A stretch of 64,000 nt of DNA, taken from IMG/VR virus record IMGVR_UViG_2974597119_000001, positions 1 through 64,000 of that record. One strand, written 5' to 3'. Position 1 is the first letter of the stretch; the number at the start of each line of letters is the position of its first letter. Shown here in pieces: positions 668-59,581 of this stretch. The notes below the pieces were generated by a model. It did not search any database, had not been told where the DNA came from, and was given only the letters and a program-made list of their open reading frames with translations. Source of the stretch: a virus. Its lineage: Duplodnaviria > Caudoviricetes. Both the position numbers and the translations under genes were made by a program.

Positions 668-702
668 CCTCCGTCAGATACGGAGGATTATTGCGTCACG
701 AC
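668..702 (-). promoter_or_regulatory. Late-type promoter (GTCGTGAC-GC-AATAAT) overlapping an SD-sequestering hairpin
   Basis: Motif at 687-702; hairpin CCTCCGT/ACGGAGG at 668-686 contains the GGAGG SD. Confidence 0.65.
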
Positions 703-706
703 CTTC

Positions 707-1816
707 TCACACGGGCTCTGTGATGACCTGCCCGCCCACGCGGAAGATGACGCCGTTGTAACGGCGGATCCCGTTGTACCGATAGTCGTAGGTGATCACG
801 AGCTCGGCGTCGTCCGTCGCGCCGGCGAAGGAGTCGGACAGGGCCCCGAAGGTCGACGTGATCGTGAACTGCGGATCGTCCGGCGCCGTCAGCGTGTCCT
901 CGAGCGCGGCCGCCGCCGACCAGGGGATCGCCCCGGCGTCGTTCGGCGGCGTGAACGTGTCCATCATGTCCGAGCCGCGCAGCAGCAGTGAACGCAGATG
1001 CGTCCCCGCATCGCGCAGCCGGCCGATTAGCTCGCGCACGATCTGCGCGAACTGCACGATGTCGCCGCCGTTCTCGAAATTGTAGCCGTACTCGACATCG
1101 AACAGCCCGTAGATGGGCGCCCGGCTGGCGTTGTAGTAGTAGACGCTGTTGCGGGTGATGACGCCGTTGTACAGCGGGAACACGTCGCCATAGACCGTCA
1201 CGTCGGTGACCTTGGCGTTCTGTCCCGTGAAAATCTTGATCGCCGCTTCCATGGCGACGTTGTTGCCGCGCGGGCGCAGCACCTCGGCGATGATGCGCGG
1301 GCCGTAGCTGGCGTCGTTCTCGCCCTGGATGCGCGGCACCGCGTAGTAGCCGCCGATCTCGTCCAGCCACTCGTTCTGCGCGGTCTTGGTGCTCATCTGC
1401 TTGAGCATTTCGCCGATCTGCACCTCGGCCTGCTGGAGCTCGACCGCCTGGGCCTCCATGTAGGCCCACAGCACGCTCGTGTAGCCGTAGAGGTGGTCGC
1501 CGTTCGAGCTCGCGATGTCGTTCGAGCCGTCCATCAGGACGCGCGCGGACAGCAGCGACAGCTCGGAATAGTCGCCGTATGGCAGCGAGTAGCCCGGCTG
1601 CTCGGCAAGATGGTTGTAGAGCTGGCCCAGGGTGTACTGGGTCAGGTCGACCGTCAGATTGCTGCCGGGGCCGCCGGTCACTGTCGTGGTCAGCACCGCG
1701 TCGGTGATGCGCCACGTCATGCCCCCGTCGTACTGCAGGCGCAGCGCGAGGAACTTGCCCGGATCCTTGTCAAAGACCCGGTGCAGGAGCGAGAGCAGTT
1801 TCTGAGTGAGCCGCAT
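707..1816 (-). CDS. Baseplate wedge subunit (gpI-like)
   Basis: Likely start MRLTQKLL at 1816; WLDEIGGYYAVPRIQGENDASY resembles the gpI/tail_P2_I LD..G...R..GE.D..Y motif; directly after baseplate J. Confidence 0.7.
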   Translation of the reverse strand: MRLTQKLLSLLHRVFDKDPGKFLALRLQYDGGMTWRITDAVLTTTVTGGPGSNLTVDLTQYTLGQLYNHLAEQPGYSLPYGDYSELSLLSARVLMDGSNDIASSNGDHLYGYTSVLWAYMEAQAVELQQAEVQIGEMLKQMSTKTAQNEWLDEIGGYYAVPRIQGENDASYGPRIIAEVLRPRGNNVAMEAAIKIFTGQNAKVTDVTVYGDVFPLYNGVITRNSVYYYNASRAPIYGLFDVEYGYNFENGGDIVQFAQIVRELIGRLRDAGTHLRSLLLRGSDMMDTFTPPNDAGAIPWSAAAALEDTLTAPDDPQFTITSTFGALSDSFAGATDDAELVITYDYRYNGIRRYNGVIFRVGGQVITEPV

Positions 1817-1818
1817 GG

Positions 1819-2937
1819 TCAGGTGATCGTGATGGCGCCCGGCATGAGCTTGGTTTTCTTGTCGACCGTCGTGTCGGCCGTCGGCGCGCTGGGCACGAAG
1901 TTGTAGACGCCTTCGATGTCCATGATGATCGCGATGATCTCCGACAGGATCGCCGGGGCGCCGATCTCGAGGCCCTGGATATAGGCGTAGACCGCCTCGG
2001 TCGCCTGCGTCACCAGGGTCGGTTTGTCGTACCCCGGCAGCGCGGTCAGATCGCCGATCACGTCGACCGTCTGCTCGACGGCGGCGTACACCTCGACCTT
2101 GACGCCGGCGGCCTTCCAGCCCGGCACGGCCTTGCCGCTGGAGTCGTAGTAGCCGTAGATCACCTCGCGCGCTCGGTTTACCAGGACGCTCGAGGTGCTG
2201 CCGACGCCGTTGTGGATGTAGCACTCGACCAGCGAGATCGGCATGCTGGAGTCGATATCCTTCCACGGCTCAACGATGGAGGCCGAAACCACGCGCTCGG
2301 TCACGTTGCCCGAGGCGTCGGTCAGGGACGTGGTTTTCAGGCCATACTCCAGCGCCGCGACCGTGCCACGGTTCAGCGACTGGACGAAGGCGCGGAATCG
2401 GAGCTTGCGGTCATCCTCGGTCTCAGCGTCCGTCCCGTTCGACCACGGCGAGAGGTTCGTCGCGCTGACAAAGCCAGTCGGCGCGGGCGACAGGGTGAAT
2501 TGCGTTCCCGCCGCCACATTGCCGGCGGCGCCGGCCGTGGCCGCCGTCACCAGCACGTCAGCGAACGTGTCGCCGGCCGGGATGATCACGTCCTGGTTGA
2601 CGGTATAGTCGATGTCGCCGTTCAGGTAGCTGACCGTCGTGCCGGACGAGATCAGGACATCCGAGGCATTCGAGGCAATCGTGACCCGCACCATTCCGGT
2701 CGCTGGCAGCGCCGGAAGGGCGTCGAAGTCGAACGAGAAATAGGTCGCAGCCGGGATCGCCTCTTTCAGCCCGTTGTGCATCTGCTGATAGAGCTCGTCG
2801 ATCTCCGACGCGGGTGCCTCGACGACGGTGCGCACGACGCTGCCGACGTTGAAGTCGGTGACCTTGCTTTGCGTCGACTTCATCCAGTTGATCATCGACG
2901 CGACAATCGAGGTGAAGTCCTTGATCTGAAATGCCAT
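1819..2937 (-). CDS. Baseplate J/gp47-like wedge protein
   Basis: TDFNVGSVVRT, AGAAGNV and NGTDAETEDDRKLR motifs. Confidence 0.9.
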   Translation of the reverse strand: MAFQIKDFTSIVASMINWMKSTQSKVTDFNVGSVVRTVVEAPASEIDELYQQMHNGLKEAIPAATYFSFDFDALPALPATGMVRVTIASNASDVLISSGTTVSYLNGDIDYTVNQDVIIPAGDTFADVLVTAATAGAAGNVAAGTQFTLSPAPTGFVSATNLSPWSNGTDAETEDDRKLRFRAFVQSLNRGTVAALEYGLKTTSLTDASGNVTERVVSASIVEPWKDIDSSMPISLVECYIHNGVGSTSSVLVNRAREVIYGYYDSSGKAVPGWKAAGVKVEVYAAVEQTVDVIGDLTALPGYDKPTLVTQATEAVYAYIQGLEIGAPAILSEIIAIIMDIEGVYNFVPSAPTADTTVDKKTKLMPGAITIT

Positions 2938-2946
2938 ATGTTGCCC

Positions 2947-3564
2947 TTACGGATTCGCCTCGATCTGAGCCGGCTGGCCGGATACCGGCTCGACCTTCAC
3001 GCCCACGTTCACCACGTCGCCAATCACCTCTGCCGTCGCGCTCACCACGCGGCGCACGCGCGGATCGGCCAGGACGGCGGACCGCGTGTACTGGGCGGCG
3101 AGCAGCGACGCGGTGGGCCCGTTCACGGCGCCAAGCAGCCGGCGCGTGCGGTTGCCGTAGTCCATGTGGTGGATCAGCTCGCCGGTTTCGGTCTCGACGC
3201 GGTTCCGGATCGCCTGCGTGAAGTTCTCCCGGCCGGCCGCCACCAGGAAGTCACCGCCGTCGACCGCCAGCATGCCGTTCTCGAGGCGAATGTCCCGCTG
3301 GAACACCTCCTGCGGGTCCGTCGACGTGGTGACCGCTGGGGCCGGCGCCGGTACCAGCAGCAGCTCGCCGGTCAGGATGACGCCGGGCTTCACCTGCGCC
3401 GGATCGTCGGTGATATACGGCGGAACCAGTTTGTTGAAGGCGATGAGCTCGTGCCAGCGGCCGGCATCGCCGAGCGTCCGCGCGGCAATCGCCTTGAGGG
3501 TGTCGCCGCGCCGGGTCTCCTCGAACCGGAAACCGTACATCGGCCGGGAAAATGGCGTCGTCAT
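2947..3564 (-). CDS. LysM-like + gp25/gpW-like baseplate protein
   Basis: N-terminal GDTLKAIAARTLGDAGRW (LysM-like); C-terminal QAIRNRVETETGEL..H.DYG..ADPRV (gp25-like). Confidence 0.75.
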   Translation of the reverse strand: MTTPFSRPMYGFRFEETRRGDTLKAIAARTLGDAGRWHELIAFNKLVPPYITDDPAQVKPGVILTGELLLVPAPAPAVTTSTDPQEVFQRDIRLENGMLAVDGGDFLVAAGRENFTQAIRNRVETETGELIHHMDYGNRTRRLLGAVNGPTASLLAAQYTRSAVLADPRVRRVVSATAEVIGDVVNVGVKVEPVSGQPAQIEANP

Positions 3565-4718
3565 ACTGCCACCGCCATGCCGTCTGCCACGCTGCGCACG
3601 GCGCTGTAGAGGGCCACCGGCGACATCCGCGCCAGCACCGGGTCATTCGCCGCGAGCGTCCGCAGGCTCGACTGCGCGCTTTCGGTCAGCGTCACCGGCA
3701 GCGGCCCGCTCGTCGGAACCACCGAGTAGAACGGGTTCTGGCCCGCCAGGACGCTGATCGGCCGGCCGCCGCTCGTCGACGAGCAGTTGGAGGCGCCGAA
3801 CAGCGGCGAGTAATCCTCGTAGTAGATTTGCTGGTTCAGCGCGTTGCGCAGCACGCAGAAGATGTTCGTGTAGGCCCCGGCCACCTGCATCAAGCGGGCC
3901 CTGACTTGCGACGGGATGTTCGCGATGGCCGCCGCCGTCCGGAAAATGTTGATGCCGGCCTGGGCCGTCATGCGAGCGACGCTGATCAGCGACCCAGCGA
4001 TGCCGTCGGCCGCCGAGATCGCGCCGCGCACGGCGCCATAGAGGCGCGCCGTCTGCTGCATGAACGTGCGGACCGGCGCGACAATCGTGCGGTCGACCCA
4101 CTGGTGGACATTGTTGATCGCCGACGTGATCTCGTTGATCGAGGCAGTCAGGCTGTCGAGGCCGGCGGCCTCGAGCACGTCGGCGTTCAGCAGGCCGCCC
4201 AGGGCGCCGAAAAGGCCGCCGGCGCCAACGTCGTCGCCCAGGACCGTCATGTTGATCTGGTACTGGGACAGGAGAGGCCGGGACCGGGATCGGCGCAGGG
4301 TGAACGACATCGGCGCGACCACGACGGTGAAATTGTCGAGCGCATCCGCGAACACCAGCTTGACCCGATCCGGGTCCATGCCGGCCTGCACGGCGGCCGC
4401 GCGGCGCTCGTGCCACTGCACATAGACCTGATCGTAGAGCTGCTGGAACCGCGCCGCGCCGTCGCCGCTGCCGAACGTCGGCCGCCAGCCCGTGTGGCCG
4501 CTGATCTGGATCGTCGGCACGCCGGGCCCGAAATTGTCGGCCCAGGCACCGCCGAGGGTCTGCTGGACGTTCAGGCGCGACGGGTCGTTGCGCGTCAAAT
4601 CCTCCGGCCGGATGACCAGATCGACGCTGGCAGGTGCGCCGCCCGTAGCTTGATCGTCCAGGAGGAAGCTGATCGGGCGAGCGTCGGCCTTCTGGCTCGA
4701 TGGGGCGCTCGTGAACAT
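3561..4718 (-). CDS. Tail tube initiator / baseplate-associated protein
   Basis: VQQTLGGAWADNFGPGVPTIQISGHTG and F.LRRSRSRPLL..Y.I motifs; located in the baseplate cluster. Confidence 0.55.
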   Translation of the reverse strand: MFTSAPSSQKADARPISFLLDDQATGGAPASVDLVIRPEDLTRNDPSRLNVQQTLGGAWADNFGPGVPTIQISGHTGWRPTFGSGDGAARFQQLYDQVYVQWHERRAAAVQAGMDPDRVKLVFADALDNFTVVVAPMSFTLRRSRSRPLLSQYQINMTVLGDDVGAGGLFGALGGLLNADVLEAAGLDSLTASINEITSAINNVHQWVDRTIVAPVRTFMQQTARLYGAVRGAISAADGIAGSLISVARMTAQAGINIFRTAAAIANIPSQVRARLMQVAGAYTNIFCVLRNALNQQIYYEDYSPLFGASNCSSTSGGRPISVLAGQNPFYSVVPTSGPLPVTLTESAQSSLRTLAANDPVLARMSPVALYSAVRSVADGMAVAV

Positions 4719-4740
4719 TGGCCCATTGTCGTGTCACGAC
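4719..4740 (-). promoter_or_regulatory. Late-type promoter, leaderless (GTCGTGAC-AC-GACAAT-6nt-ATG)
   Basis: Recurrent motif; ATG 4718 at predicted +1, no SD. Confidence 0.75.
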
Positions 4741-4760
4741 AACAGGCCAGACCTGTGCGG

Positions 4761-10697: not shown

Positions 10698-10713
10698 ATT
10701 GTCCCGTCACGAC
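10698..10713 (-). promoter_or_regulatory. Late-type promoter (GTCGTGAC-GG-GACAAT), leadered
   Basis: Recurrent motif just downstream of the tube-gene terminator. Confidence 0.7.
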
Positions 10714-13976: not shown

Positions 13977-14036
13977 GGGGTCAATGATCGCGTCACGACC
14001 GCCGGCGCGGGGAAGGCGTGACACTAGAATTCAGGC
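13977..14036. promoter_or_regulatory. Back-to-back pair of late-type leaderless promoters
   Basis: Minus: GTCGTGAC(13999-13992)-GC-GATCAT-7nt-ATG13976; plus: GGCGTGAC(14015-14022)-AC-TAGAAT-6nt-ATG14037. Confidence 0.75.
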
Positions 14037-17422: not shown

Positions 17423-18925
17423 TTACTCGGCGGTGAACGGGCGCCACTTCGCGTTGCTGGGCAGGATGTTCTTGATGTAGCCGTGGTGCTTCGGCTTGGT
17501 CACGCGCAGGTAACCGAACAAGAACTGGAACCAGGAGATGACCGGCACACCGCCCACGCCGAACGGCAGCGGGATCTTGGTCATCGGCTGGTACTGGCGC
17601 CAGCCGATGGCATCGGCGGACGGGCCCAGGTTCAGCAGCGGGATCGACACCGTGCCGGGGATGTCGCGGTTCAGGTCGACGAAGGTCGTGGTCGCGCCAG
17701 CCTTCTTGACGATCTTCACCAGACGCAGATCGGCGGCCGCGTTGGTGCCGTTCTGGCGGCTGCGGTAGATCGCGTAGCCCGACTCGGTGCCGGAGGCCGA
17801 CTGGGCGATCGTCAGCGTCACCTTCTGGCCGGCGGCCACGGCGGTCTGCGTGGTCAGCGTCACGGCGGTCAGACCTTCGCCGTTGGCGCCGATGGCGGCC
17901 ACACCGTAGTAGAAGTTGCCGGCGCGGGCGGCCGAGAACTTCGACGCGGCGTCGGACGCGGTGGCGGCGGTCACGCTGGCCGGCTTGAACGCGACGTTGG
18001 CAGCGGCGACCGAGGCGTAGTTCACCTCGAACGGCTTGACCATCGGATGTTCTTCATCGTGGATGAAGGTGTCCATGTTGGTGCGCAGCACGCCGTGTTG
18101 CAGGCGGATGCCTTCGACGTGGCCGCCCAGCATCGGCGTGTTGTTGCCTTGCGGCACCCAGCGGTAGGCCGGGTCCAGACCCATGTTCAGGTCGTTCTGC
18201 ACCGAGTTGGGCAGGAACACGTCGGTCGAGCGGCCCCAGGAACCGTAGCGGCTGACGGCCGTGTTGATCTTGCCGAAGGCTTCCACGCTGTCCAGCTTGG
18301 CGCCGTCCAGGTCGACGATGTTGTCCTCGGGCATCTTGCCGTCGGCGATTTCCTTGTCGATGATGTTGAAAATACCATCGAACTGGGTCGGCGCGGCGTC
18401 GGCGTTGCCGTGGAACAGCAGGTACTCGGCGTCAGTCAGGAGCTGCAGCGCGCCGTTGCGTTCCTCGACGGCCGTGGCCTCGACGATATTCTTGCCGATG
18501 TTCAGGACGTAGCCGACCTGACGCAGAGACATCAGGAACTTCACCAGCCCGACTTCGCGGCTGTATTCGCCCTGCGCAGCGCGCACGACGCCCATCTGCG
18601 AGTTGGTCGAGCCGCCCAGGAAGCCGCCGACGCTCGACTGACGAACGTATTCGTCAACGATGTTGGTGGCCTTGGTCGCATTCAGGCGGTTGAACAGCAC
18701 GAAGTGCTCGTTCTCCTGAATCGTGGTCTTCATCGCCGTGTCCAGCGACTGCACGGTCAGGGCGCCACCGCCTTCCAGGGTCGCAACGTCCGTCTGGTAG
18801 TTGCTGGCCTGGAGAGCCTTCTGCAGCTCCTGGAACTGCTCCAGCGACCCGCCCGAGGTGCCACCCAGGGTCGGGATCGCGCCGCCGGGAACCATCCCGG
18901 CCATCATCTGTTGAATTCCGCTCAT
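17423..18925 (-). CDS. Major capsid protein (SPO1/Twort-like HK97 fold)
   Basis: 500 aa; LQKAL...GGALTVQSLD, LFHGN...QFDG, IVDLDG, FVDLNRDIPGT; downstream of protease and scaffold. Confidence 0.9.
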   Translation of the reverse strand: MSGIQQMMAGMVPGGAIPTLGGTSGGSLEQFQELQKALQASNYQTDVATLEGGGALTVQSLDTAMKTTIQENEHFVLFNRLNATKATNIVDEYVRQSSVGGFLGGSTNSQMGVVRAAQGEYSREVGLVKFLMSLRQVGYVLNIGKNIVEATAVEERNGALQLLTDAEYLLFHGNADAAPTQFDGIFNIIDKEIADGKMPEDNIVDLDGAKLDSVEAFGKINTAVSRYGSWGRSTDVFLPNSVQNDLNMGLDPAYRWVPQGNNTPMLGGHVEGIRLQHGVLRTNMDTFIHDEEHPMVKPFEVNYASVAAANVAFKPASVTAATASDAASKFSAARAGNFYYGVAAIGANGEGLTAVTLTTQTAVAAGQKVTLTIAQSASGTESGYAIYRSRQNGTNAAADLRLVKIVKKAGATTTFVDLNRDIPGTVSIPLLNLGPSADAIGWRQYQPMTKIPLPFGVGGVPVISWFQFLFGYLRVTKPKHHGYIKNILPSNAKWRPFTAE

Positions 18926-18955: not shown

Positions 18956-19627
18956 TTAGGAAACGACTTTCTGGATCAGCTCGGCGCTGACGGGAGCACC
19001 GGTGCGCAGCGCCACGTCAATCGTGGTCAGCTCCTGGCCGGTTATCTTCTTGGCGTCGAACGCGGCATGCGACTTCGCCATGAACTCGCTGCCAGTCATG
19101 CCGCTGGGCTCGGACTTGTTCATCTGCTCGCCGGCGCCGGGCTTCTCGGTGATCGCCAGCACGGTCTTGCGGCCGCGGCCCTCGCCGCGCAGCTTGGCGA
19201 TCTCGCCCTGCATCGACTTGATCAGGTCGGCTTGACCCTTGACCAGACCGACGCACTGCTCGAGCGCCTTGAACATCTGGCTTTCGCCTTCGGCCTGCTT
19301 GGTGCCGAGCGCCTGCAATTGGCCCATCAGCGACTTGACCAGCTCGGTGCCATCGACGGCCTCGACCTGCTTACCGTCTTCCAGCGTGACGGTGCCGAGG
19401 GACTTGCCCAGGGTCTCGCCTTCGCCGTCGCCTTCACCTTCGCCGGCGCCGTCACCATCCGGCTTGCCGCCGGCGCCGTCGCCTTCACCATCCATGTCGC
19501 CGCCCTCCGCAGCGGCGGCTTGGATGTTCTTGTCATCCTCGCCATCACCCGCCGGAAGCGCTTTGCTCATGGTTTCTTGCTCCGAGGCCAAGCCGTCCAG
19601 CTCGGCCATCAGCTTGTCAAAACTCAT
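18956..19627 (-). CDS. Capsid scaffolding protein
   Basis: Acidic/coiled-coil 223 aa with repeated xxK[S/A] sites, between protease and capsid genes. Confidence 0.7.
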   Translation of the reverse strand: MSFDKLMAELDGLASEQETMSKALPAGDGEDDKNIQAAAAEGGDMDGEGDGAGGKPDGDGAGEGEGDGEGETLGKSLGTVTLEDGKQVEAVDGTELVKSLMGQLQALGTKQAEGESQMFKALEQCVGLVKGQADLIKSMQGEIAKLRGEGRGRKTVLAITEKPGAGEQMNKSEPSGMTGSEFMAKSHAAFDAKKITGQELTTIDVALRTGAPVSAELIQKVVS

Positions 19628-20517
19628 GGCTTACTCCGTTTTTTGAGACCAGTTTTCAGATCGCGCACAAAGCGCTCCACCCATTCGGCCGCGTCGCTTC
19701 GCGAGAGACCGAACGTATTCGCCGAATACTCGACGAGTTCCTTGATCCCGGGGTTGTCGCCGGCGGCGCCGTGGCGCATCGCATCGGCGAGCTTGTTCCG
19801 GAAATCGAAGTAGTTTGCCGGACCACCGGCATCGAGGGACTGCATGCCGAGCGCAGCGCCGCCCGTCTTGCCGACGGCATCGGTCGCATAGCCGGCCTCG
19901 AGCGCTTTCGACAGATCCAGGCCGCCCACGCCCCAGCACTTCGCGAGCGCACCGAACGGCACGGTCGCCACGGTCGGCACGGTCTGGTTCACCGGCGTCT
20001 TGCTGAATCCGATGTTGGTCCAGCGCACGCGCTTGACGAAAGCCTTCCGCAGCTTCGTGGTGGGGTCGATCTCGACGGCCTTCTCGAGCACCGCGCCGCC
20101 GACGGACGGATACCAGCGCGCCGGCGGGTCGACCTCGGTCACCGAGCTCCAGAATTGATTGGCGCGCTCCGCCGCCGGGCCCGTGCCGGCGAAGATTTCG
20201 CCTTTGACGAACGTGCGCCCGTCGGCGAAGCGCGCCTCGACCGGGCGACCGATCTCGAACAGCGTGTAGTCGGGGATCCCTGCCTTCGCGCCAATCTGTG
20301 TGATGTGATCGATGTCGAGATTGCCGTAGCGCAGGTAGTAGTCCGACGACGAGGAGAGTGCCTTTTGCAGCACCACCTCATTCTGTTGATCGGTCGCCTC
20401 GTTGCTCGCCTCGATGAACACGAACCGGCGACCGCCATCCATCATGGGCGTCGCCTTGAGCATCGAACCGATGCTCAAGTATTCGGGTACAGAGGCCAGC
20501 AGGTCGCGTTGATCCAT
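19624..20517 (-). CDS. Prohead protease
   Basis: EASNEATDQQNEVV, NLDIDH, YPSVGG and FSKTPVN motifs of herpes-fold phage proteases. Confidence 0.8.
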   Translation of the reverse strand: MDQRDLLASVPEYLSIGSMLKATPMMDGGRRFVFIEASNEATDQQNEVVLQKALSSSSDYYLRYGNLDIDHITQIGAKAGIPDYTLFEIGRPVEARFADGRTFVKGEIFAGTGPAAERANQFWSSVTEVDPPARWYPSVGGAVLEKAVEIDPTTKLRKAFVKRVRWTNIGFSKTPVNQTVPTVATVPFGALAKCWGVGGLDLSKALEAGYATDAVGKTGGAALGMQSLDAGGPANYFDFRNKLADAMRHGAAGDNPGIKELVEYSANTFGLSRSDAAEWVERFVRDLKTGLKKRSKP

Positions 20518-20539
20518 GCCGCAATTGTGCTGTCACGAC
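20518..20539 (-). promoter_or_regulatory. Late-type promoter, leaderless (GTCGTGAC-AG-CACAAT-6nt-ATG)
   Basis: Recurrent motif at the head of the protease-scaffold-capsid operon. Confidence 0.8.
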
Positions 20540-25654: not shown

Positions 25655-25677
25655 AATGCCGATGGTATGGTCACGAC
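25655..25677 (-). promoter_or_regulatory. Late-type promoter, leaderless (GTCGTGAC-CA-TACCAT-7nt-ATG)
   Basis: Recurrent motif. Confidence 0.7.
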
Positions 25678-25684: not shown

Positions 25685-25914
25685 GGCCCCGGCGTTACCG
25701 CCGGGGCCCCGTTGTCTTTCCAACCGTCCGCGACACCTTTCGCAACGCCAGCACCCCTATGCACCGGTCTCGCTGCTACTCGGACAGGCACGCCGCAAGG
25801 AGAACGGCGCCCCGCGCAGCCGGGGTTTTTCTCTACAATCCACGCCCGGCTGGGACTGTCCGGCCTATCCTCTCATGAGGCCCCGCCGGCTGGGGGATCA
25901 GCTATCGCAAACAT
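25685..25914 (-). ncRNA. Candidate structured ncRNA (~230 nt) with its own late-type promoter at 25920-25935
   Basis: No credible ORF (13 codons only); nested helices 25781-87/25856-62, 25817-24/25845-52, 25791-95/25805-09; strong 3' hairpin 25685-25708. Confidence 0.5.
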
Positions 25915-25938
25915 GGCCCATCATTGCGTCACGACCGG

Positions 25939-32555: not shown

Positions 32556-32585
32556 CGAGGGACGGCCTTTTCGGAACGTCCCCCG

Positions 32586-32601
32586 ATTGTGCTGTCACGA
32601 T
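32586..32601 (-). promoter_or_regulatory. Late-type promoter (ATCGTGAC-AG-CACAAT) for the DarB-like gene
   Basis: Recurrent motif about 30 nt upstream of ATG 32555. Confidence 0.7.
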
Positions 32602-34449: not shown

Positions 34450-34471
34450 GCTGCGAGCATAGCGTCACGAT
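34450..34471 (-). promoter_or_regulatory. Late-type promoter, leaderless (ATCGTGAC-GC-TATGCT-6nt-ATG)
   Basis: Recurrent motif. Confidence 0.7.
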
Positions 34472-37431: not shown

Positions 37432-39176
37432 GGCTCGATGCGGAAAACCGGCAGGCCGAACGCTTTCTGCAGCTCCTCGCCGCCGGCGGCGCCATCGTCC
37501 TGGCCGTCATCGTCGGCCGGCGGCTTGCCGAAGTTGGCGCCGGTGTCGTTCTCGCCACCCGGGCTCCCGAAATCCTCGCCGTCGTCGTCGTCATCGTCGC
37601 CGGGCGCGCCGGGCTGGCCCTGCCCCGGCTGGCCGAAATCCTGCTCCTGCGCCTGGTTCTCGGCCTGCCACACGCCGATCAGCGACGGGTTGATGGGCGC
37701 GGTGCCGATCTTCCCGCCCACGGGATCGAGGCCGTCGATGGCGCGCATCTCGTCCCAGGTCATCGCCAGCTTCTGGCGCTCGAACGCGCGCTGCTCGTCC
37801 TCCTCGTCCAGGCCGGTCCAGCGGAACACGTACTTGTCGGAGAACTCGGCGACGATGAAGTCTGAGAACAGGTTCTCGAAATAGGACAGCAGCGGACGCA
37901 GGCCCTTGTCCTTTGAATTCGCCAGCTTCTCCTCGGTGTCGTCGCCCGACAGGCTCGACGTGCCGGCTGTGAAGGACTCGAAATTGATCTCGTCCGGGGC
38001 GATGCCGTAGATCGCGCAGATGATGCTCGTGAGGAACGTCATCCACTTGGCGAACATGATCTCGTTCACCTCGACGCCGAAGTTCTCGAACGAGGCTTTC
38101 GATTCCTGGTCCTTGGAGATCATGACCGGCAGGGTCCAGGCATTGTTGATGCCCTTGACCATCGCGTTCCAGTAGCGCCGGAACGCCGCCAGATCCTTGT
38201 CGTCGTAGTTCCCCGTGAGGTGCAGCAGGCCCTTCGGGATCTGGTTCGAGTCGAAAAACTTGGTGTTGTAGGTGAAGGCGTTCAGGAACCCGGTGACCGT
38301 GCGCACCAGCAATTCCGTCTCGGCGAAGCCGTAGCCACCTACCGTGACATCGGTGCGCGGATTGCGCGGCACGTAGATCAGGTCGTCGTAGGTGTAGACG
38401 GAGCGGATGTTCCCCTCGACGACCTGGAGCGAGAAAATCTCGTCATCGCCGCGATAGCCATCCTCGGAACACAGGCGGATCGTGCCGCCGTCGACCGCGT
38501 ACAGCCCGTCCAGGCCCAGGGTCTTGTCGCGCTTCCATTCGGTTTCGATGGGCGCCGAATCCATCGTCAGGCTGTCGCGCACCAGCTTCGCCATGAAGCC
38601 TGAGAAGTTGTCGCGCTTGAGCCGCATGCGCTGGCGAGGCTTGGCCTCCCAGCCGCAGTTGAGGAAGAAATCCTGCAGCAGGAGGATGGACTGATTTTCC
38701 TCCTCGCCCGCCTTCGCCTTGTCATCCTTGAGCGCGATGCGGAAGCCCGGGCCCTTGCCGGCGCCCTGGACGCGGCAGAAGCGGTCGATCTGGCGCAGGC
38801 GCGTGAAAATCACCGCGCTCAGGATCGGCGTCTGGTCGACCATCGCGCGCATGTTCTGGAAGCTGAACGCGGTCGGCCGCTCGTACCAGTCGCCGACCAG
38901 GGCGAACTGCCGGTCATCCAGCCAGACCGACTGCATGCCCGGCTCCTTCTCACGCACGGCGCGGCTGGGGAACGGGATGATGTTCGGCTTGGCGAGCGCC
39001 TTCGCGAATTCCTGCTGCTCGTACTGATCGCGCATGAACTCGACCATCGGCAGCATGCGCTCGACGTTGACCGACGCCGGGTCGAGCGCCGCCTTTTGGA
39101 GCTCGGTTTGCGCATCGCGCCGCTCGTCGGCGGGCGCAGCGTCGTTGTAGGCGATTTTTGCGGCAGTGTCGGTCAT
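37428..39176 (-). CDS. Portal protein
   Basis: 582 aa; YAVDGGTIR, FFDSNQIPKGLL, CAIYGIAPDEI, SKDKGLRPLL and DEMRAIDGLDP motifs. Confidence 0.9.
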   Translation of the reverse strand: MTDTAAKIAYNDAAPADERRDAQTELQKAALDPASVNVERMLPMVEFMRDQYEQQEFAKALAKPNIIPFPSRAVREKEPGMQSVWLDDRQFALVGDWYERPTAFSFQNMRAMVDQTPILSAVIFTRLRQIDRFCRVQGAGKGPGFRIALKDDKAKAGEEENQSILLLQDFFLNCGWEAKPRQRMRLKRDNFSGFMAKLVRDSLTMDSAPIETEWKRDKTLGLDGLYAVDGGTIRLCSEDGYRGDDEIFSLQVVEGNIRSVYTYDDLIYVPRNPRTDVTVGGYGFAETELLVRTVTGFLNAFTYNTKFFDSNQIPKGLLHLTGNYDDKDLAAFRRYWNAMVKGINNAWTLPVMISKDQESKASFENFGVEVNEIMFAKWMTFLTSIICAIYGIAPDEINFESFTAGTSSLSGDDTEEKLANSKDKGLRPLLSYFENLFSDFIVAEFSDKYVFRWTGLDEEDEQRAFERQKLAMTWDEMRAIDGLDPVGGKIGTAPINPSLIGVWQAENQAQEQDFGQPGQGQPGAPGDDDDDDGEDFGSPGGENDTGANFGKPPADDDGQDDGAAGGEELQKAFGLPVFRIEP

Positions 39177-39198
39177 GCCGCCATTGTCGTGTCACGAC
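39177..39198 (-). promoter_or_regulatory. Late-type promoter, leaderless (GTCGTGAC-AC-GACAAT-6nt-ATG)
   Basis: Recurrent motif directly before the portal ATG. Confidence 0.8.
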
Positions 39199-42655: not shown

Positions 42656-42892
42656 ATGGGCACCTGGGTCGGGATCCGCTGCGAGAAGCTGGGCCCGGGC
42701 TGCTTGTCGGCCGAGAACATTGGCCCGTCCGGCATGTTCGCCGACGGCTCCTACAACGTGGCCGCCGGCGTCCGGAAACTCTACGCCGACGCACATAAGC
42801 AGGGATGGCGCCGCGAGAGCGAAGTGCCGAGCGCCGGGCCGCGCGGCGGCTGGCTGTGCCCTGTGTGTTTGAAGAACAAGGAACAATCGTGA
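42656..42892 (+). CDS. Small Zn-finger-like protein
   Basis: IRCE..GC and WLCPVC. Confidence 0.55.
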   Translation: MGTWVGIRCEKLGPGCLSAENIGPSGMFADGSYNVAAGVRKLYADAHKQGWRRESEVPSAGPRGGWLCPVCLKNKEQS

Positions 42893-45117: not shown

Positions 45118-45193
45118 CGTGGTGTAGCGCAGTTGGGAGCGCGCCGGGCTCATAACCCGGAGGTCGCAGGTTCGAGTCCTGTCACCGCAACCA
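45118..45193 (+). tRNA. tRNA-fMet (CAT), initiator type
   Basis: C1:A72 mismatch, CCGGG-CTCATAA-CCCGG anticodon arm with 3 GC pairs, TTCGAGT T-loop, encoded CCA; TAGAAT -10 at 45106-45111. Confidence 0.92.
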
Positions 45194-46074: not shown

Positions 46075-46383
46075 GGTAGTGTGCGGGCCTCGGCCCGCGA
46101 GACGTGAAGTGAATGGCGTTCGGACGCGGGTTCAATTCCCGCCGGCTCCACCACTGGCAGCATTGGCGTCGAGCTCAGCATCCCCGGGGTCCGGATCACG
46201 GGTGAGTTCCAGTGCTGCCAGTCATGGGGCCGACCGGTTTCGACGGGCGCGCTGCAGCGGATCGGACTACTCGGCAAGCGGAGCCGTAAACCAAGCAAAA
46301 TCGTAGACGCCAACGACGACTACATCCGCGCCGCTGCTTAAGCGGTGACGGCCTCCCCCGGCAGGTGGCAACAGAAGCCGGGG
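46075..46383 (+). ncRNA. ssrA: Circularly permuted (two-piece) tmRNA; tag (A)ANDDYIRAAA
   Basis: Acceptor piece with T-arm GCGGG-TTCAATT-CCCGC and CGGCTCCACCA ends at 46153; coding piece starts GGGGCCGACCGGTTTCGAC at 46226; G3:U70 pair; tag ORF 46309-46341. Confidence 0.9.
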
Positions 46384-49318: not shown

Positions 49319-49468
49319 GCCGCGATTGTCGTTTCACGACCACACTCGCGGCGTCGCGAATCATTTTTGATCTACAATTTCACTTCACGCTTTTTCACTA
49401 CAGGGACGCGCCTCGAATACGAGACGTGACAAGAAACTCAAGTGCCGTGAACCAACGCGGCCTCCTCT

Positions 49469-52090: not shown

Positions 52091-52241
52091 TCTAGGGCGC
52101 ACATAGGGCGCGGCGGCTGACAATCCATCCCAGGTTCCCACACCCTGAACTGTCCGCGCTGGCCCCACACCGGCGCGCAGGCCGCCGCGCCCACGTCGAC
52201 CATTTGCCATAACGCCCGGGTCAAGCAAGCGACTTGTTGAC

Positions 52242-52586
52242 TCAGCGCACGGGCTCCCACACCGGAACGCCGGCGGCGCGCGCAGCGTCCGCCATGTCGG
52301 CCGTGCCGCGCCCACCAGGGAACGCAACCACGCCGTCGGGCTTGAGCTCGAGCATCTTCCGATTGCGCAGCGGCCCGGCCCGCCGGCCATGCGTTGCCCA
52401 GTCGGCCGGGTGCGGGTCGCGCGGCACGCCCCGGGCACGCGCCCAGTCGTCGGCCAGGGAATCGGCGCCGCGCGCCGCGCCGTGGATCAGCAGCGTCACC
52501 GGCCGCTTCGCATGCACGCGGTCGAGCGCGGCGAAGACCGCCTCGCGGTCCGCGTAGTCGCGGCCGCCGCAGACCAGCAGCTTCAT
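52242..52586 (-). CDS. SLOG/YspA-like (DUF2493) protein
   Basis: MKLLVCGGRDY, IHGAARGAD, AGPLRN..ML and AFPGGRGT motifs. Confidence 0.85.
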   Translation of the reverse strand: MKLLVCGGRDYADREAVFAALDRVHAKRPVTLLIHGAARGADSLADDWARARGVPRDPHPADWATHGRRAGPLRNRKMLELKPDGVVAFPGGRGTADMADAARAAGVPVWEPVR

Positions 52587-54679
52587 GCGGCCTCGTCGTA
52601 GAAGTCGCAGCCGGGCGCCGTCGGCTTGGTGCGGAAATGCCGCTCGCTGCACATGCCGCTATGCTCGTCGAACGCCGAGCAGCGGCCGCACACGTTGCCG
52701 GACAGCGCCGGCAGGTCGGCCAGCGGCACCTTCACGATCTCGGCGATCTTCTCCACCACGTTGACAGTCTGCTCCATCTTCGGCGCCTCCGGCAGGATGA
52801 ACGATGTCGTGCCGTGGGCGCGGGCCCAGGCCACGTCGCACAGCATGTTGGCGTAGCTGTAGTGCGGGTCGATGCCGACCTTGAGCACCTTCATGCGCAG
52901 CTTACGCGCCTCCATGTCCTTTTTCGGGCGTCCGTTCGCGGTCTCCGACCCGTCATCGACGACGAGCGCGGTTTTCGTGAAGTGAACGAACACCCAGTCG
53001 CGCAGGAGCGGAATGCGCTTGCGCTCGCCGTCCTCGAGCACGTCCTGCACGAGATCGTCGGCCGCCGGGAACAGGCAATGGCCGTCACGCACGCGGTACA
53101 GCGCGGTCTGCATGCACTTGTACTGGTTGAGCGTCACCGAGTAGCGCGAGCGATCCTCCTCGGACGTGCGCCGGTCGGACTTCGACAGGTCGTCGCCCCA
53201 CACCATCTGGTCGTCGCGCAGGTCGGCATAACCGGCCAGGAACACGCGGCCCGGGTGCCGGTTCGCGAAGCGCCGCGCGTCGTTGACGTTGGGCAACTGC
53301 TCGACCACGCACACATCGATCTTGAACTGCCGCATGAGCTCGCTGCAGCGCTCGAACGGGTCGTTGTCGAACACAGCCTCGACATGCGCGTAAGCCTGCC
53401 GTCCATCCGGCAAGCGCTTCTTGATGACGGCCGCATTGAAGCCGCCCATCTGGTCGATACCCATGAAGTAGCTGCTCACGCCGTCGTGCTTGGCCTCCCA
53501 TTTGAGGCCGTACTTGATTCCGGCCTCCATCGCCGCGATGCAGTGCGCCATCGTCACCGGCAACTGGTCGGCGTCAATGTACGGCCGCGCCAGGGTGCGA
53601 TTGTAGAAGCTCTTTTTCTGGTTGCCGGTCTTGGCCCGCCGGAAGCCCTCGATCATCTTGCGCGGCGTCATCTTCGGGCTGATCGTGCGCGGCAGCAGGA
53701 ACGACCGGATGCGCGGGTTGGCGCCCGGGTTGGTCACGATGTAGCGGCCGATCTGCGGATCCTGAATCCAGCCGCCGCAGCTCGGGCACGTCCAGACGTA
53801 CTCGTTGACCGGCGCGCCCTCGATCTGGCCCGTGTTGTAGCCGATGGACTTCGCCGGGAAGATGCCGGCCGGGTCGGACAGGTCCGACATGGCTTTGCAG
53901 TGCGGGCATTCGGTGTGCCAAACCTCCTGCGTCCCTTCCAAGTACCAAAAATGGATGTCCAGGTCCGGCATGTTGGCCGTGGACAGCATGAGCGTGAAGG
54001 CGATCTCGGAATCGCCCATACGCGCGCGCACCTTGTCGATCTGGTCGAGGGCCATTTCCTGCACCTCGTCCAGGGTCACAATGTCCATCGGCACCGATTC
54101 GGTCGTCACCTTGCCGGTCGTCCAGAGGAACAGCAGCAGCGACTCGCCGACCTTCCGGGTCAGCACGTTGCCCTCGCCGACCTTCTGCGCGTTGCCGTCG
54201 GCATCCCGGCCGTTGACCAGCAGCTTGTAGAGGTCCGGCGCGCTCCGGACCATGCGCATGAACCGGTGCTCGGACTTGTGGATCGCGGTCGTCATCGACG
54301 GCATGAACATGCCGATGCTGACCGGATCCCACTTGCACGCCATGTAGAGGTTCGCCAGGACTTCCCACACAGTCAGGCCGAGCTGCGTCGCCTTCATGGC
54401 GATCAGCATCGCGTCCTTGGCCTCCTCGCGGGTGCTGGGGATGGCCTCGTAGATCGGCCGCAGCGCCGGACGGTTGTCCAGGCGGAACGGCTTGCCGTCG
54501 ACCTTCAGCCCCTTCTCGCCCAGGTATTCGCACCACTCGACGAACGTTTTGTCCCCGATTTCGCTGGTGTCGACGCGGAAGCCGGTCATGTGCTCGATGC
54601 GGCCGATCAGCTCTCCCAGCGTGTCGAATGGATCCTCTGCCTGCTGCGGCTGTCGGCGGCCGCGCTTCGGGAACGCCAT
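52583..54679 (-). CDS. Terminase large subunit (GpA family)
   Basis: KATQLGLT Walker A, TLDEV Walker B, STAN, CPHC/CPSC, MGIDQ nuclease, DPHY. Confidence 0.9.
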   Translation of the reverse strand: MAFPKRGRRQPQQAEDPFDTLGELIGRIEHMTGFRVDTSEIGDKTFVEWCEYLGEKGLKVDGKPFRLDNRPALRPIYEAIPSTREEAKDAMLIAMKATQLGLTVWEVLANLYMACKWDPVSIGMFMPSMTTAIHKSEHRFMRMVRSAPDLYKLLVNGRDADGNAQKVGEGNVLTRKVGESLLLFLWTTGKVTTESVPMDIVTLDEVQEMALDQIDKVRARMGDSEIAFTLMLSTANMPDLDIHFWYLEGTQEVWHTECPHCKAMSDLSDPAGIFPAKSIGYNTGQIEGAPVNEYVWTCPSCGGWIQDPQIGRYIVTNPGANPRIRSFLLPRTISPKMTPRKMIEGFRRAKTGNQKKSFYNRTLARPYIDADQLPVTMAHCIAAMEAGIKYGLKWEAKHDGVSSYFMGIDQMGGFNAAVIKKRLPDGRQAYAHVEAVFDNDPFERCSELMRQFKIDVCVVEQLPNVNDARRFANRHPGRVFLAGYADLRDDQMVWGDDLSKSDRRTSEEDRSRYSVTLNQYKCMQTALYRVRDGHCLFPAADDLVQDVLEDGERKRIPLLRDWVFVHFTKTALVVDDGSETANGRPKKDMEARKLRMKVLKVGIDPHYSYANMLCDVAWARAHGTTSFILPEAPKMEQTVNVVEKIAEIVKVPLADLPALSGNVCGRCSAFDEHSGMCSERHFRTKPTAPGCDFYDEAA

Positions 54680-55332: not shown

Positions 55333-55430
55333 AGAACCAGTTCCATTGTCTCAATAGTCCTGATTCTAGTGTCACGAGTCTCAAAGTCCTGAGACTGGGC
55401 CGCGCCCAGACGGGCGGGCCCATGCAGAGG

Positions 55431-56288: not shown

Positions 56289-56360
56289 GTCAGCCCCCGG
56301 CTTCCTGTGCCCAGCAGAACGCGGTCGTAAGCGACGATGGCGCGGGCGCGCGGCGTCGTG

Positions 56361-57207: not shown

Positions 57208-57220
57208 GATCAATTCTACG

Positions 57221-57481
57221 TCACGAGAGCGCGAAGCGGCGCGGTTGTCGCACCAAAGCAACGGCGGGCATGCTCAGGCCGCGCCACGACTCCACGTCAG
57301 CCTCGTCGCCGATGTTGCCGAAGCGGGCCACGTCGCCGCCGGGCTCGTGCCGCCACAGGGCGCCATCGAACCAGAAGCGCTGCGGCAGGTCGCCGTCGAA
57401 GTACCGGCACTCGTACCAGCCCACGTAGGCCGGATCGATGTTGGCGGGGAACCAGTCGGTCACGGGCGGCAGGTCCGTCAT
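57221..57481 (-). CDS. Hypothetical protein (paralog of 60380-60634)
   Basis: TDWFP...P..VGWYE...WRGL. Confidence 0.65.
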   Translation of the reverse strand: MTDLPPVTDWFPANIDPAYVGWYECRYFDGDLPQRFWFDGALWRHEPGGDVARFGNIGDEADVESWRGLSMPAVALVRQPRRFALS

Positions 57482-57999
57482 GCGTCGCCCTGCTGGGCGG
57501 CCGCGATGAAGTCGCGGATCTCGTCGTTCCAGACGCCGTAGCGGCGGACCACAGACGTGAACTCCTCCACGTCATGACCGCGCAGGCCGTAGACCGGGTT
57601 GCCGTCCAGGTCGAAGCGCAGCTCGCCGTGGCGGTCGCGCTTTTGCTGGCAATGCGTCAGCTCGTGGAAAACCAGGATCTCGCGGTTGCGCGCGCCGCAC
57701 TCCTGCCAGTAGCCCTCGTCCAGCACGACCAGGAAGCGCGGCATGCGGCCCAGCATGCGCTGGATCATCCACTCGAAAACGTCTTTCAGGCCGCCTTGCA
57801 CCTTGGGCTCGTAGACCGTGCCCAGGATCATCCGGCCGCCCATGATCTTTTCCTTGCGCCGAAAGAGAAACGCTAAGTCGATCTCATTCTCGACAAGGTG
57901 CTCGTGCTCCGGCATGCGCAGCACGGCATCCACAATGGGCTCGAGCCCGTCGTCGGGCTCGGGTAGGCGGAACAGGTCGAATTCGTCGGGCTCATCCAT
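57478..57999 (-). CDS. Putative phage metallopeptidase
   Basis: LVFHELTH (HExxH) and HDVEEF..VVRRYG; leaderless late-type promoter at 58000-58021. Confidence 0.8.
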   Translation of the reverse strand: MDEPDEFDLFRLPEPDDGLEPIVDAVLRMPEHEHLVENEIDLAFLFRRKEKIMGGRMILGTVYEPKVQGGLKDVFEWMIQRMLGRMPRFLVVLDEGYWQECGARNREILVFHELTHCQQKRDRHGELRFDLDGNPVYGLRGHDVEEFTSVVRRYGVWNDEIRDFIAAAQQGDA

Positions 58000-58043
58000 G
58001 CGCCCATTGTGGCGTCACGAGTCGGACCCGCGCACCCAGGGCG

Positions 58044-59258
58044 TTACAGGCCGAGCCATGCCCGGATCTGGTTCGCCAGCCATGTGCCTAGGGTGGCGTG
58101 GCCGGCGGTATCCGGGAGAACCCCGTCGGATTTGGTGTAGGCAAGCCCCGTCGGGTCCAGAAAGAGGCACCCATAGGCATCACCCAATTCCTGCTCGACC
58201 AACGCTTTCAGGGTGTCACGGAACTCGATGTGCTTTGCGCTTGGCGCCGCCGGCGCGGTTGGATCCCACGGGCCCACGATGACCATTTGCGGCTCACCCT
58301 TACCGCCTCGCGCCCGGAAAAGAAGGTCTTTGGCCGCAGCATAGAATTCAGCTGCCGTGGACCCCGCCAAGTCCTCCAGGCCGAACGCGACAACCATGAT
58401 GTGCGTGTGGCCGGTACCCGGCCAATCAAAATGCGAGCGGTCGACACCCCGATATCGCGTGCCCCCGGCATCGGCGATGTATCCCGTCCCCGCCGATCCC
58501 GACGTGAGAACGTCGTCCATGCCGAGCAGGTCTCCCGCGACAAGAGCAAGGTTGTCGCCGGCGATTGCCGCGCCGTCGCCAGACACAAACCCATCCCCGA
58601 AAGCCAGCATGCGCCAGCGGGGACGCTCCTCCCACTGCATGTCTTCCGGCGCCGCAAGCAAGATCCCGGAGAATGCCTGATCCCCAGTCCCCTCCACGAA
58701 GATGTTTCGAGCCGCGCGCGTGGGGAACTCGATCCGGAACGACTCGACCCCTGGCCCGGCCGTCGACATCACTCCGTCCAGGCTCACGTATTGGCCGTCG
58801 ACGATGAAGCGGTATGGCCGGCTCGATTTGGATACCTGGAACGCGACCACCTGGGCATCCAGGCGCGCGCCAGCGCGCCATACCACGGCATCACGCCCGC
58901 CCCCGACATTTCCGCCCGTCTCGCCCACCGTGACGCACGGGAACTGCCGGAGCCCGCCAGCGTCCTTGTCGGCCCCGCCGAAATAGTGAATCCAATCGCT
59001 GCGGTTCGCGTAGGTATGGTCCTGCACTGGCAGCTCGGCGCTCACGTCCGCGCCCACCGTAATGATCGGCGGATCGGCCATGACCGGGCTGCCGTGAGGG
59101 CTTGGCAAGCTCGCAGCAGCGGCGATGCGGGCCTTCAACGCCGGCCTATCCCGTAGCCAGTCCGGGATAGGCGGCCGCTTGGCGCCAGCCAGAGCAGACG
59201 GCAAACCCGGCTCCATCGTCGGAGCCAGCAAGGCATCCAGGAGCACGGGCTTGAGCAT
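58044..59258 (-). CDS. SGNH/GDSL-fold protein with degenerate catalytic residues
   Basis: LAFGDGF, GSAGTGY, FGLED and DGVLP blocks. Confidence 0.7.
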   Translation of the reverse strand: MLKPVLLDALLAPTMEPGLPSALAGAKRPPIPDWLRDRPALKARIAAAASLPSPHGSPVMADPPIITVGADVSAELPVQDHTYANRSDWIHYFGGADKDAGGLRQFPCVTVGETGGNVGGGRDAVVWRAGARLDAQVVAFQVSKSSRPYRFIVDGQYVSLDGVMSTAGPGVESFRIEFPTRAARNIFVEGTGDQAFSGILLAAPEDMQWEERPRWRMLAFGDGFVSGDGAAIAGDNLALVAGDLLGMDDVLTSGSAGTGYIADAGGTRYRGVDRSHFDWPGTGHTHIMVVAFGLEDLAGSTAAEFYAAAKDLLFRARGGKGEPQMVIVGPWDPTAPAAPSAKHIEFRDTLKALVEQELGDAYGCLFLDPTGLAYTKSDGVLPDTAGHATLGTWLANQIRAWLGL

Positions 59259-59527
59259 CAGGATTTGTCGATCAGACAGTTGCCAGTAGTCGTAGCCACG
59301 TTGAACGTGCCCGGCACGCCGGGGATGACCGTGGCCGGCCGGTACTGGTTGATTTCACCGATGGGCGTGTAGGTGCCGTCGGCGTTCTTGAAGTTGATCG
59401 TAGCCCGCCAGGGCGGACCGTCGACGCCCGACCGGCGGCCTACCACCATGACGGGAACGCCGCTATCGACGTTGAAATCGGGGGACGTTTGGGCGCCCTC
59501 ACCAGGGGATATGAGTGCTTGTGCCAT
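59258..59527 (-). CDS. Small beta-rich late protein
   Basis: 89 aa; leaderless late-type promoter at 59528-59549; coupled to the SGNH gene. Confidence 0.65.
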   Translation of the reverse strand: MAQALISPGEGAQTSPDFNVDSGVPVMVVGRRSGVDGPPWRATINFKNADGTYTPIGEINQYRPATVIPGVPGTFNVATTTGNCLIDKS

Positions 59528-59581
59528 GCCGAGATTGTGCAGTCACGACGCACGTTCCGAAGCGAAAGCTGCATCGACACA

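Follow-up and report, generated by a model that had tools for sequence, protein, structure and literature searches.

A TCGTGAC-type element with a -10 box as the probable late promoter of a clade of proteobacterial myophages, and its predicted leaderless messages

A 16-base signal recurs in front of the late genes of the phage (Caudoviricetes) deposited as IMG/VR record IMGVR_UViG_2974597119_000001. It consists of GTCGTGAC, a spacer of 2 nucleotides (nt) and a minimal -10 box, and is present in 16 copies in the window, i.e., the whole stretch of DNA that was analysed, which comprises the first 64 kb of the 94,005-bp viral record (65.5% G+C; 100% complete according to CheckV). Several late genes of the window were mapped on the minus strand by PHROG matches:

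37428-39176, minus strand: portal
19624-20517, minus strand: head protease
17423-18925, minus strand: major capsid
52583-54679, minus strand: large terminase
3561-4718, minus strand: baseplate/virion protein of 385 amino acids (aa)
ATG at 32555, minus strand: DarB-like methyltransferase-helicase, 2097 aa
ATG at 25654, minus strand: SNF2/helicase-like protein, 1518 aa

The closest named relatives are myophages of about 90-95 kb, i.e., Aeromonas phage ST4, the Pseudomonas phages Dolphis, Jeremy and Touem01, Escherichia phage ECML-606-1, Enterobacter phage phiT5282EW and Yersinia phage fHe-Yen8-01. Morganella phage Mecenats66 is more distant, and the capsid of the Thermus phages of the Lalka/phiMa group shares 34% identity with that of the window phage. 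The clade that carries the motif consists of contractile-tailed phages of Proteobacteria of about 85-97 kb, most of which are temperate.

The copies of the signal and the genes behind them are the following, where the hexamer is the -10 box:

687..702, minus strand: G-TCGTGAC-gc-AATAAT; a leader, then GTG 662 of a 150-aa gene (210-662)
4725..4740, minus strand: ATG 4718 6 nt past GACAAT; the 385-aa virion/baseplate protein (3561-4718)
10698..10713, minus strand: just past a T-run; a leader with the Shine-Dalgarno (SD) sequence AGGAG, then ATG 10674 of a 122-aa gene
13984..13999, minus strand: ATG 13976 7 nt past GATCAT; 274-aa homologue of a head-to-tail adaptor
14015..14030, plus strand: variant GCGTGAC-ac-TAGAAT; ATG 14037 6 nt past the hexamer; 286-aa gene
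20524..20539, minus strand: ATG 20517 6 nt past CACAAT; head maturation protease, which heads an operon
25662..25677, minus strand: ATG 25654 7 nt past TACCAT; the 1518-aa SNF2/helicase-like protein
25920..25935, minus strand: the sole open reading frame (ORF) behind it has 13 codons; ATG 5 nt past AATGAT
32586..32601, minus strand: 30-nt leader, then ATG 32555 of the 2097-aa DarB-like methyltransferase-helicase
34456..34471, minus strand: ATG 34449 6 nt past TATGCT; conserved 386-aa protein
39183..39198, minus strand: ATG 39176 6 nt past GACAAT; portal, which opens the leftward late block
49325..49340, minus strand: variant TCGTGAA-ac-GACAAT; ATG 49318 6 nt past the hexamer; 251-aa protein (phrog_20105)
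55363..55378, minus strand: TAGAAT; 30-nt leader, ATG 55332 of a 217-aa gene, then the large terminase (52583-54679)
57212..57227, minus strand: variant with a 1-nt spacer, TCGTGAC-g-TAGAAT; ATG 57207 5 nt past the hexamer; 113-aa gene
58006..58021, minus strand: ATG 57999 6 nt past CACAAT; 173-aa gene
59534..59549, minus strand: ATG 59527 6 nt past CACAAT; 89-aa gene, then a 404-aa gene

All 16 copies are oriented towards a late gene or operon (particle, packaging or cargo). The first-pass annotation of this DNA had counted about 16 copies and had placed them at the head of late genes for the portal, the protease and capsid, the terminase, the baseplate and cargo; all 16 coordinates proved right, and each copy points into a late unit. 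In 13 copies the motif is exact, with the T of TCGTGAC at 701, 4739, 10712, 13998, 20538, 25676, 25934, 32600, 34470, 39197, 55377, 58020 and 59548, and the three others differ by one change (GCGTGAC at 14016 on the plus strand, TCGTGAA at 49339 and the 1-nt spacer at 57226, both on the minus strand). TCGTGAC alone is scarcely enriched (19 observed and 11.5 expected, 17 of the 19 on the minus strand), whereas the composite TCGTGAC-N2-NANNNT has 13 exact matches, all on the minus strand, against 0.23 expected, and none of 100 shuffles gave more than 2. Three extra minus-strand copies of TCGTGAC (12128, 42350 and 53733) lie inside genes and have no -10 box and are therefore regarded as chance matches.

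Some copies stand in particular surroundings. The two at 13984..13999 and 14015..14030 are divergent, back to back and 17 bp apart, and both are predicted to give leaderless messages (13976 and 14037); Touem01 has an equivalent pair at 42672/42691. In the operon that starts with the protease at ATG 20517, the scaffold-like and major capsid genes follow, both with SD sites. The 122-aa gene at ATG 10674 lies downstream of the tail tube gene, and the copy at 25920..25935 faces a gap of about 250 nt (25685-25935), after which the next gene has a promoter copy of its own. Beyond the window, the same genome contains at least 3 more copies, one of them before a holin-like gene at about 90.4 kb.

In 11 genes (4718, 13976, 14037, 20517, 25654, 34449, 39176, 49318, 57207, 57999 and 59527) an ATG lies 4-7 nt past the hexamer, at a distance of exactly 6 nt in 8 of the 11. 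No SD sequence is found before these ATGs, nor does any SD-preceded start occur in the first 40 or so codons, and the earlier description of 11 protein genes with an ATG just past the hexamer and no SD sequence is confirmed for every one of them. In the 8 genes with a 6-nt gap the TGA of the motif itself stands in frame 18 nt upstream of the ATG, so that no earlier start is possible. With a background ATG frequency of 0.066 the chance of finding 11 of 16 ATGs so placed is 3e-10. The leaderless starts are ATG in 11 of 11 cases, while the SD-led genes (n=32) use 21 ATG, 8 GTG and 3 TTG. Four of the remaining five copies (701, 10712, 32600 and 55377) are followed by leaders of 23-30 nt, with clear SD sequences in those of 701 and 10712, and the fifth (25934) by the 13-codon ORF only. 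Since leaders of 23-45 nt carry the same motif, it appears to act independently of the distance to the start codon. In all, 11 of the 16 units are predicted to begin at a conserved ATG on the first base of the message.

A motif scan of related genomes, which had been proposed in the first-pass annotation, was done with the pattern TCGTGAY-N2-NANNNT, and the motif proved to be conserved in six named relatives, which infect Aeromonas, Pseudomonas, E. coli, Yersinia and Morganella, as well as in IMG/VR genomes and in prophage loci. Five named relatives contain 8-15 copies per genome, nearly all on the late-gene strand, with 0-1 in the controls; ST4 has about ten, and ECML-606-1, a 95-kb phage of E. 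coli, has 9. In 13 further complete IMG/VR genomes, which were picked through the motif alone, there are 145 copies versus 1 in the control (8-23 per genome), and 56 prophage loci in alpha-, beta- and gammaproteobacteria yield 75 matches versus 4. The chromosome of E. coli K-12 shows no excess (11 matches of the 16-nt pattern versus 10 of the reversed control in 4.6 Mb), and therefore the host does not use the motif as a promoter class.

A position matrix was built from 64 sites of six phages. Its consensus is G(-22) TCGTGA Y(-15) G(-14) n C A n a A T(-7), in which G(-22) (91%) and G(-14) (69%) emerged although the search pattern left both positions free. A(-11) and T(-7) are fixed, position -12 is usually C and not T, and C(-1) and A(+1) are each found in 55% of the sites. 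No -35 box is recognisable, as the 64 sites hold no information between -52 and -23.

The leaderless layout is kept at orthologous genes, namely the portal in 4 phages, the protease in 4, the 385-aa baseplate protein in 3 and the adaptor of 274-280 aa in all seven phages compared, including Mecenats66. The orthologous portal, protease, adaptor and baseplate proteins align from Met1 (portal MTD..., adaptor MI(T/S/A)...), so that the start codons are established without recourse to a gene caller. Such copies number 11 in the window phage, 9 in Touem01, 5 in Dolphis and 3 in ST4, with one each in the E. coli and Yersinia phages, where the other copies have SD leaders of 20-35 nt. This drop in the enterobacterial phages fits the poor use of leaderless messages in enterobacteria.

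Two observations concern annotated starts. The ST4 portal (68444-70171) is annotated from 70060, 30 codons downstream of the conserved +1 ATG at 70150, and it seems that gene callers based on SD sequences mis-set the starts of leaderless genes in public records. At the protease promoters of ECML-606-1 (34490) and fHe-Yen8-01 (3727) the +1 ATG is kept and opens an ORF of 2 codons (ATG TTT TGA), followed by an SD-like AAGGG and then by the actual protease start; the short ORF may be a relic of a leaderless start or a small coupling ORF.

A hairpin, often with a T-run after it, overlaps several late promoter copies, and its 5' arm begins in or right after the -10 box. This is seen in the window at 662-702 and 32555-32601, in the same genome at about 90340-90389, and in Dolphis (28082), ECML-606-1 (7558), fHe-Yen8-01 (30138 and 60225), Touem01 (78256) and ST4 (3896). 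For copy 687..702 the hairpin CCTCCG/CGGAGG follows directly after the -10 box, its 3' arm being the SD sequence of GTG 662, the leader of copy 32586..32601 holds GGGACG/CGTCCC, and upstream of the holin-like gene there is AGACTGCGG/CCGCAGTCT followed by T6. Read-through RNA from upstream would form the terminator (at 701 it would mask the SD sequence GGAGG), while RNA started at the promoter would lack the 5' arm. This looks like a terminator/promoter arrangement that insulates late units.

Taken as a whole, the motif is probably the late promoter of this clade of proteobacterial phages, read by the host sigma70 polymerase together with a phage factor. Its behaviour as a promoter lacking a -35 box, with an upstream element at -22 to -14, is supported by the matrix and the conservation, and promoter activity, the exact start, dependence on a phage factor and the identity of that factor are predictions made from the sequences. 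A host holoenzyme of the sigma70 type would find the A(-11) and T(-7) that it requires in the hexamer. Because C is usual at -12 and a -35 box is lacking, the host polymerase alone should use the motif poorly. A phage factor made early would recognise the element at -22 to -14, or retarget the polymerase to it, and would thereby switch the late genes on. No Sigma70_r2 or Sigma70_r4_2 domain was found in the genome, and thus no sigma-like reader was recognised. A search for a single-subunit RNA polymerase (RNA_pol) gave no match in the genome, but its search control gave no match either, and a scan of the early regions with the sigma70 consensus found nothing, although that consensus may not fit the host. 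A host holoenzyme acting with an earlier-made phage factor is, we infer, the most economical reading.

Alternatively, sigma region 3 and the beta' zipper might enable the host polymerase alone to read the element as an extended -10 promoter of unusual length, with no phage factor that reads DNA; timing would then come from a protein directed against sigma region 4 (as in Thermus phage P23-45), from template copy number or from loss of a repressor. The spacer part from -22 to -14 is contacted by sigma region 3 and beta', and it is here that the element lies. Positions -15 and -14 (C 62% or T 38%, then G 69%) partly resemble the TG of an extended -10. The same motif is shared by phages whose hosts differ widely but have a highly conserved sigma70, and a recognisable DNA-binding regulator conserved throughout the clade is lacking. 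However, E. coli shows no enrichment (11 versus 10), C usually replaces T at -12, and the invariant TCGTGA upstream of the TGn is unlike the known TRTGn extension. A strong clade-specific signal that is absent from host genomes is what would be expected of a phage-encoded reader, and we regard the use of the motif by host polymerase alone as unlikely.

A transcript that starts 7 nt past the hexamer would, in 11 of the 16 copies, have the A of the conserved C-ATG as its first base. In the first cistrons (portal, protease, adaptor, baseplate protein and cargo enzymes) translation would then begin at a 5'-terminal AUG that has no SD sequence, and internal cistrons, including those for the high-copy capsid, sheath and tube, would use ordinary SD sites or coupling. 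The proposal that late translation as a whole is independent of SD sequences did not hold, as the capsid, scaffold, sheath and tube genes have GAGG, GGAG or GGAGG sites, and SD sites also precede several other genes. Leaderless cistrons are the first of their operon only and mostly encode low-copy proteins (portal, protease, adaptor and baseplate), so leaderless initiation may serve to hold the output of these proteins down.

Slightly less likely still is that the promoter is real and the messages are not functionally leaderless, either because transcription starts a few bases off the A or because the genes are translated from read-through RNA, independently of SD sequences or by coupling. The hexamer and the ATG are separated by anything from 4 to 7 nt, several units follow late units on the same strand, so that read-through RNA must exist, and the enterobacterial phages have mostly exchanged the layout for SD leaders. 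On the other hand, the portal comes first after a divergent region and has no late unit upstream, C(-1) and A(+1) are conserved, and all 11 starts are ATG. The same geometry is found with mapped 5' ends in Thermus phage Lalka27a (see below), and the terminator hairpins on several copies would stop read-through while sparing transcripts started at the promoter.

That the motif is no promoter at all is very improbable. It would then be an RNA-level signal (processing or translation enhancer) or the site of a repressor, packaging or modification protein. On inspection, GTGAY would be able to base-pair with the AUCAC close to the 16S rRNA 3' end, and start codons come directly after the element, but the invariant TC and the A2 and T6 of the hexamer follow the logic of a -10 box and not rRNA complementarity, the start codon lies anywhere from 4 to 45 nt past the hexamer while the spacing of motif and hexamer is fixed, and the copies are strictly co-oriented with the downstream gene, often lie past a terminator and mark operon heads, including the divergent pair at 13984-14030. 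An SD-like RNA element was ruled out by spacing and sequence.

Three points weigh against a phage-directed, leaderless late promoter. The case is built on comparative evidence, the assignment of the -10 box rests on consensus logic, and leaderless mRNAs are generally poorly translated in gammaproteobacteria.

The first-pass annotation had further suggested that an initiator tRNA of the phage fits the leaderless starts. The gene concerned is:

45118..45193, plus strand: tRNA-Met(CAT) of initiator type, called by ARAGORN and Rfam

The tRNA is indeed of the initiator type, with a C1:A72 mismatch (5' CGTGGTG ... CACCGCA 3') and three consecutive G:C pairs in the anticodon stem (GGG/CCC; CCGGG and CCCGG on either side of CAT). 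However, the relatives do not support a link to leaderless starts, since neither Touem01 (9 leaderless starts) nor Dolphis (5) has any tRNA gene. The tRNA-Met, together with tRNA-Asn and tRNA-Pro, adjoins a permuted (two-piece) transfer-messenger RNA at 46100-46341 (Rfam RF04321, 104.5 bits).

As to which factor reads the motif, two neighbouring genes, which stand out among those conserved in every clade member, are candidates:

61034..61555, minus strand: P0001, candidate reader, 173 aa; first gene of the early leftward operon, with a host-type -10 box
60747..61040, minus strand: P0002, candidate partner, 97 aa; directly after P0001 in all clade genomes

P0001 has 8 invariant Cys, which form two predicted zinc sites, and a conserved basic helix past the second Cys pair; P0002 is Cys-rich, with weak Pfam zinc-ribbon matches below threshold. 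Among 50,697 phage records, both occur in the 8 of the clade and nowhere else; they are also present in 13 of the 13 complete genomes picked by the motif, and they are adjacent in about 30 of the 56 prophage loci. The P0001 operon is preceded by -10 boxes of the TATACT/TATGAT type and not by the late motif. The late region begins directly downstream of the pair, and in some prophages the next gene is that of the portal or terminase. Tentatively, we propose that P0001/P0002 read the late motif. Still more speculative is the wider possibility that this pair of zinc proteins represents a new kind of transcription factor, which redirects proteobacterial RNA polymerase via GTCGTGAY to promoters lacking a -35 box and is coupled with deliberate leaderless translation throughout the clade.

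Several findings speak against this assignment or are neutral to it. The AlphaFold2 (AF2) model of P0001 (pLDDT 80.6) has no Foldseek match at E <= 0.001 (best 0.84), and with a best VIA-align Z of 2.9 neither a DNA-binding nor any other known fold was recognised; P0001 falls into no known family either. The capsid gene co-occurs with the motif as fully as P0001/P0002 do, because the 13 complete genomes are all members of one structural clade, and picking genomes by the motif therefore did not set the pair apart from other core genes. Mecenats66 keeps P0001-P0003 yet has only about 3-4 copies of the motif. The P0002 homologue of fHe-Yen8-01 (52853-53131) is annotated as 'particle associated protein'; should it really be a virion component, injection may replace or supplement its early synthesis. 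In the distant prophage loci L078 (9953-9995), L088 (9787-9888), L071 (9945) and L089 (9935) the motif lies directly before a P0001-like gene, sometimes as a divergent pair and in L078 with the ATG at +6, which fits autoregulation and plain membership of the regulon equally.

The neighbours of the distant P0001-like genes in L078, L088 and L093 gave no clear element type. In a profile search of PDB sequences only chance matches to cytochrome c were obtained for P0001, and this identity was rejected; the ESM Atlas holds only viral clusters without names for it. Between the P0001 operon and the genes that run rightwards, the divergent region 61700-62010 is crowded with GGTATC/GGATACC repeats, perhaps operators or iterons. 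Upstream of P0001 there is also a block ATCACC..AAA..ACAC..GC.AAC, which is present in ST4 and Touem01 as well.

With the motif, a large and hardly studied clade of temperate myophages and prophages gains a promoter class that is sharply defined and very strongly conserved. The clade occurs in Pseudomonas, Aeromonas, E. coli, Yersinia and Burkholderiales, and in the form of prophages in alphaproteobacteria. From the motif the late regulon can be predicted for every member, and start codons in public records can be corrected. Cultured systems of E. coli and Pseudomonas putida allow tests of widespread leaderless translation of essential late genes, and the efficiency of leaderless messages in Proteobacteria, as well as the effect of a phage on it, become testable. 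Once identified, the motif's reader would probably be the first member of a new family of factors that direct polymerase. If P0001/P0002 are that reader, the clade as a whole would make deliberate use of leaderless translation in hosts for which it is regarded as marginal. Such use could then serve to set a low, fixed output of low-copy virion proteins or, alternatively, to sustain late translation when SD-dependent initiation is compromised.

In the literature searched no description of the motif or of promoters in this clade was found; full-text matches to TCGTGAC among the best-ranked papers were unrelated and apparently incidental, and promoters are not treated in the Mecenats66 paper. The first-pass view that leaderless late operons are unusual for a proteobacterial phage holds within this literature, the nearest precedent being the Thermus phages.

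In its logic, the nearest system described is that of P1, whose late promoters (LPmat, LPpro, LPlyz, LPpac and others) likewise lack a -35 box and combine a sigma70-type -10 box with a spacer element near -22; dependence on host SspA is a further mark of the P1 class. As in the window phage, many copies head late units (in P1 for morphogenesis, packaging and lysis) in a temperate myophage of about 94 kb. The gene of the P1 activator, lpa, has a sigma70 promoter and lies just upstream of the packaging genes. The P1 element AAGTGACTT and the element GTCGTGAC of the window phage have the core GTGAC in common. However, in the P1 record the 9-bp '-22 region' AAGTGACTT is followed by 4 nt and the -10 box, which puts GTGAC 6 nt from the hexamer, whereas in the window phage GTGAY is 2 nt from it, i.e., 4 bp closer. 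A homologue of Lpa was found neither by tblastn against six clade genomes (best E-value 1.6) nor by hhalign of the P0001 profile against Lpa (probability 0.1). With the core shifted by 4 bp and no Lpa homologue found, the motif does not belong to the P1 class. The comparison with P1 in the first-pass annotation is right in its logic (no -35 box, an element at -22), although the geometry differs. The three P1 late transcripts examined, with LPmat, LPpro and LPlyz among the promoters read, have leaders of about 20-85 nt, and the first 30 kb of P1 share with the window phage only the DarB-like gene and a single-stranded-DNA-binding protein, not the portal.

In T4, middle (MotA/AsiA) and late (gp55/gp33/gp45) transcription also depend on phage proteins that redirect the host core polymerase to promoters with a -10-like element and no -35 box. 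In contrast to the motif described here, the MotA box lies at -30, the late promoter is TATAAATA at -10 without an upstream element, and T4 messages have leaders. No sigma70 region 2 or 4 domain was found in the genome of the window phage; MotA, AsiA and gp55 were not searched by name.

The lambda cI message from PRM, the classical proteobacterial leaderless mRNA, has a 5'-terminal AUG, no SD sequence and a strict use of AUG, like the predicted leaderless genes of the window phage. However, the classical cases are single regulatory genes, whereas here 11 late units are concerned and the layout is conserved across the clade.

An experimental precedent comes from Thermus phage Lalka27a, for which 16 late promoters without a -35 box, with a TAGGGT -10 box and a conserved C at -25, have been described (bioRxiv 10.64898/2026.04.20.719267). 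For half of them starts were mapped by small RNA sequencing (sRNA-seq) 6 bp past the -10 box, most transcripts are leaderless, and the authors infer a phage factor that alters the specificity of the host polymerase (bioRxiv 10.64898/2026.04.20.719267). Lalka27a shares 34% identity with the window phage in the capsid, 34% in the protease and 25% in the sheath. Its sequence has TAGGGT-N6/7-ATG/GTG before structural genes, including the protease orthologue (TAGGGT-N7-GTG); the protease gene would be leaderless in both phages. Leaderless transcripts are also found in Thermus phage phiYS40. The signals themselves differ, being TAGGGT with C(-25) in Lalka27a versus GTCGTGAY at -22 to -15 with CAnAAT in the window phage, and no homologue of P0001 or P0002 was found in any Thermus phage record. 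The hosts differ as well, since Lalka27a infects Deinococcus-Thermus, in which leaderless mRNAs are the norm, whereas they are the exception in Proteobacteria. The layout of many late promoters with 5'-terminal start codons seems to be common to the wider structural lineage, which suggests that it is an old trait of that lineage, while GTCGTGAY is a signal of the proteobacterial clade alone.

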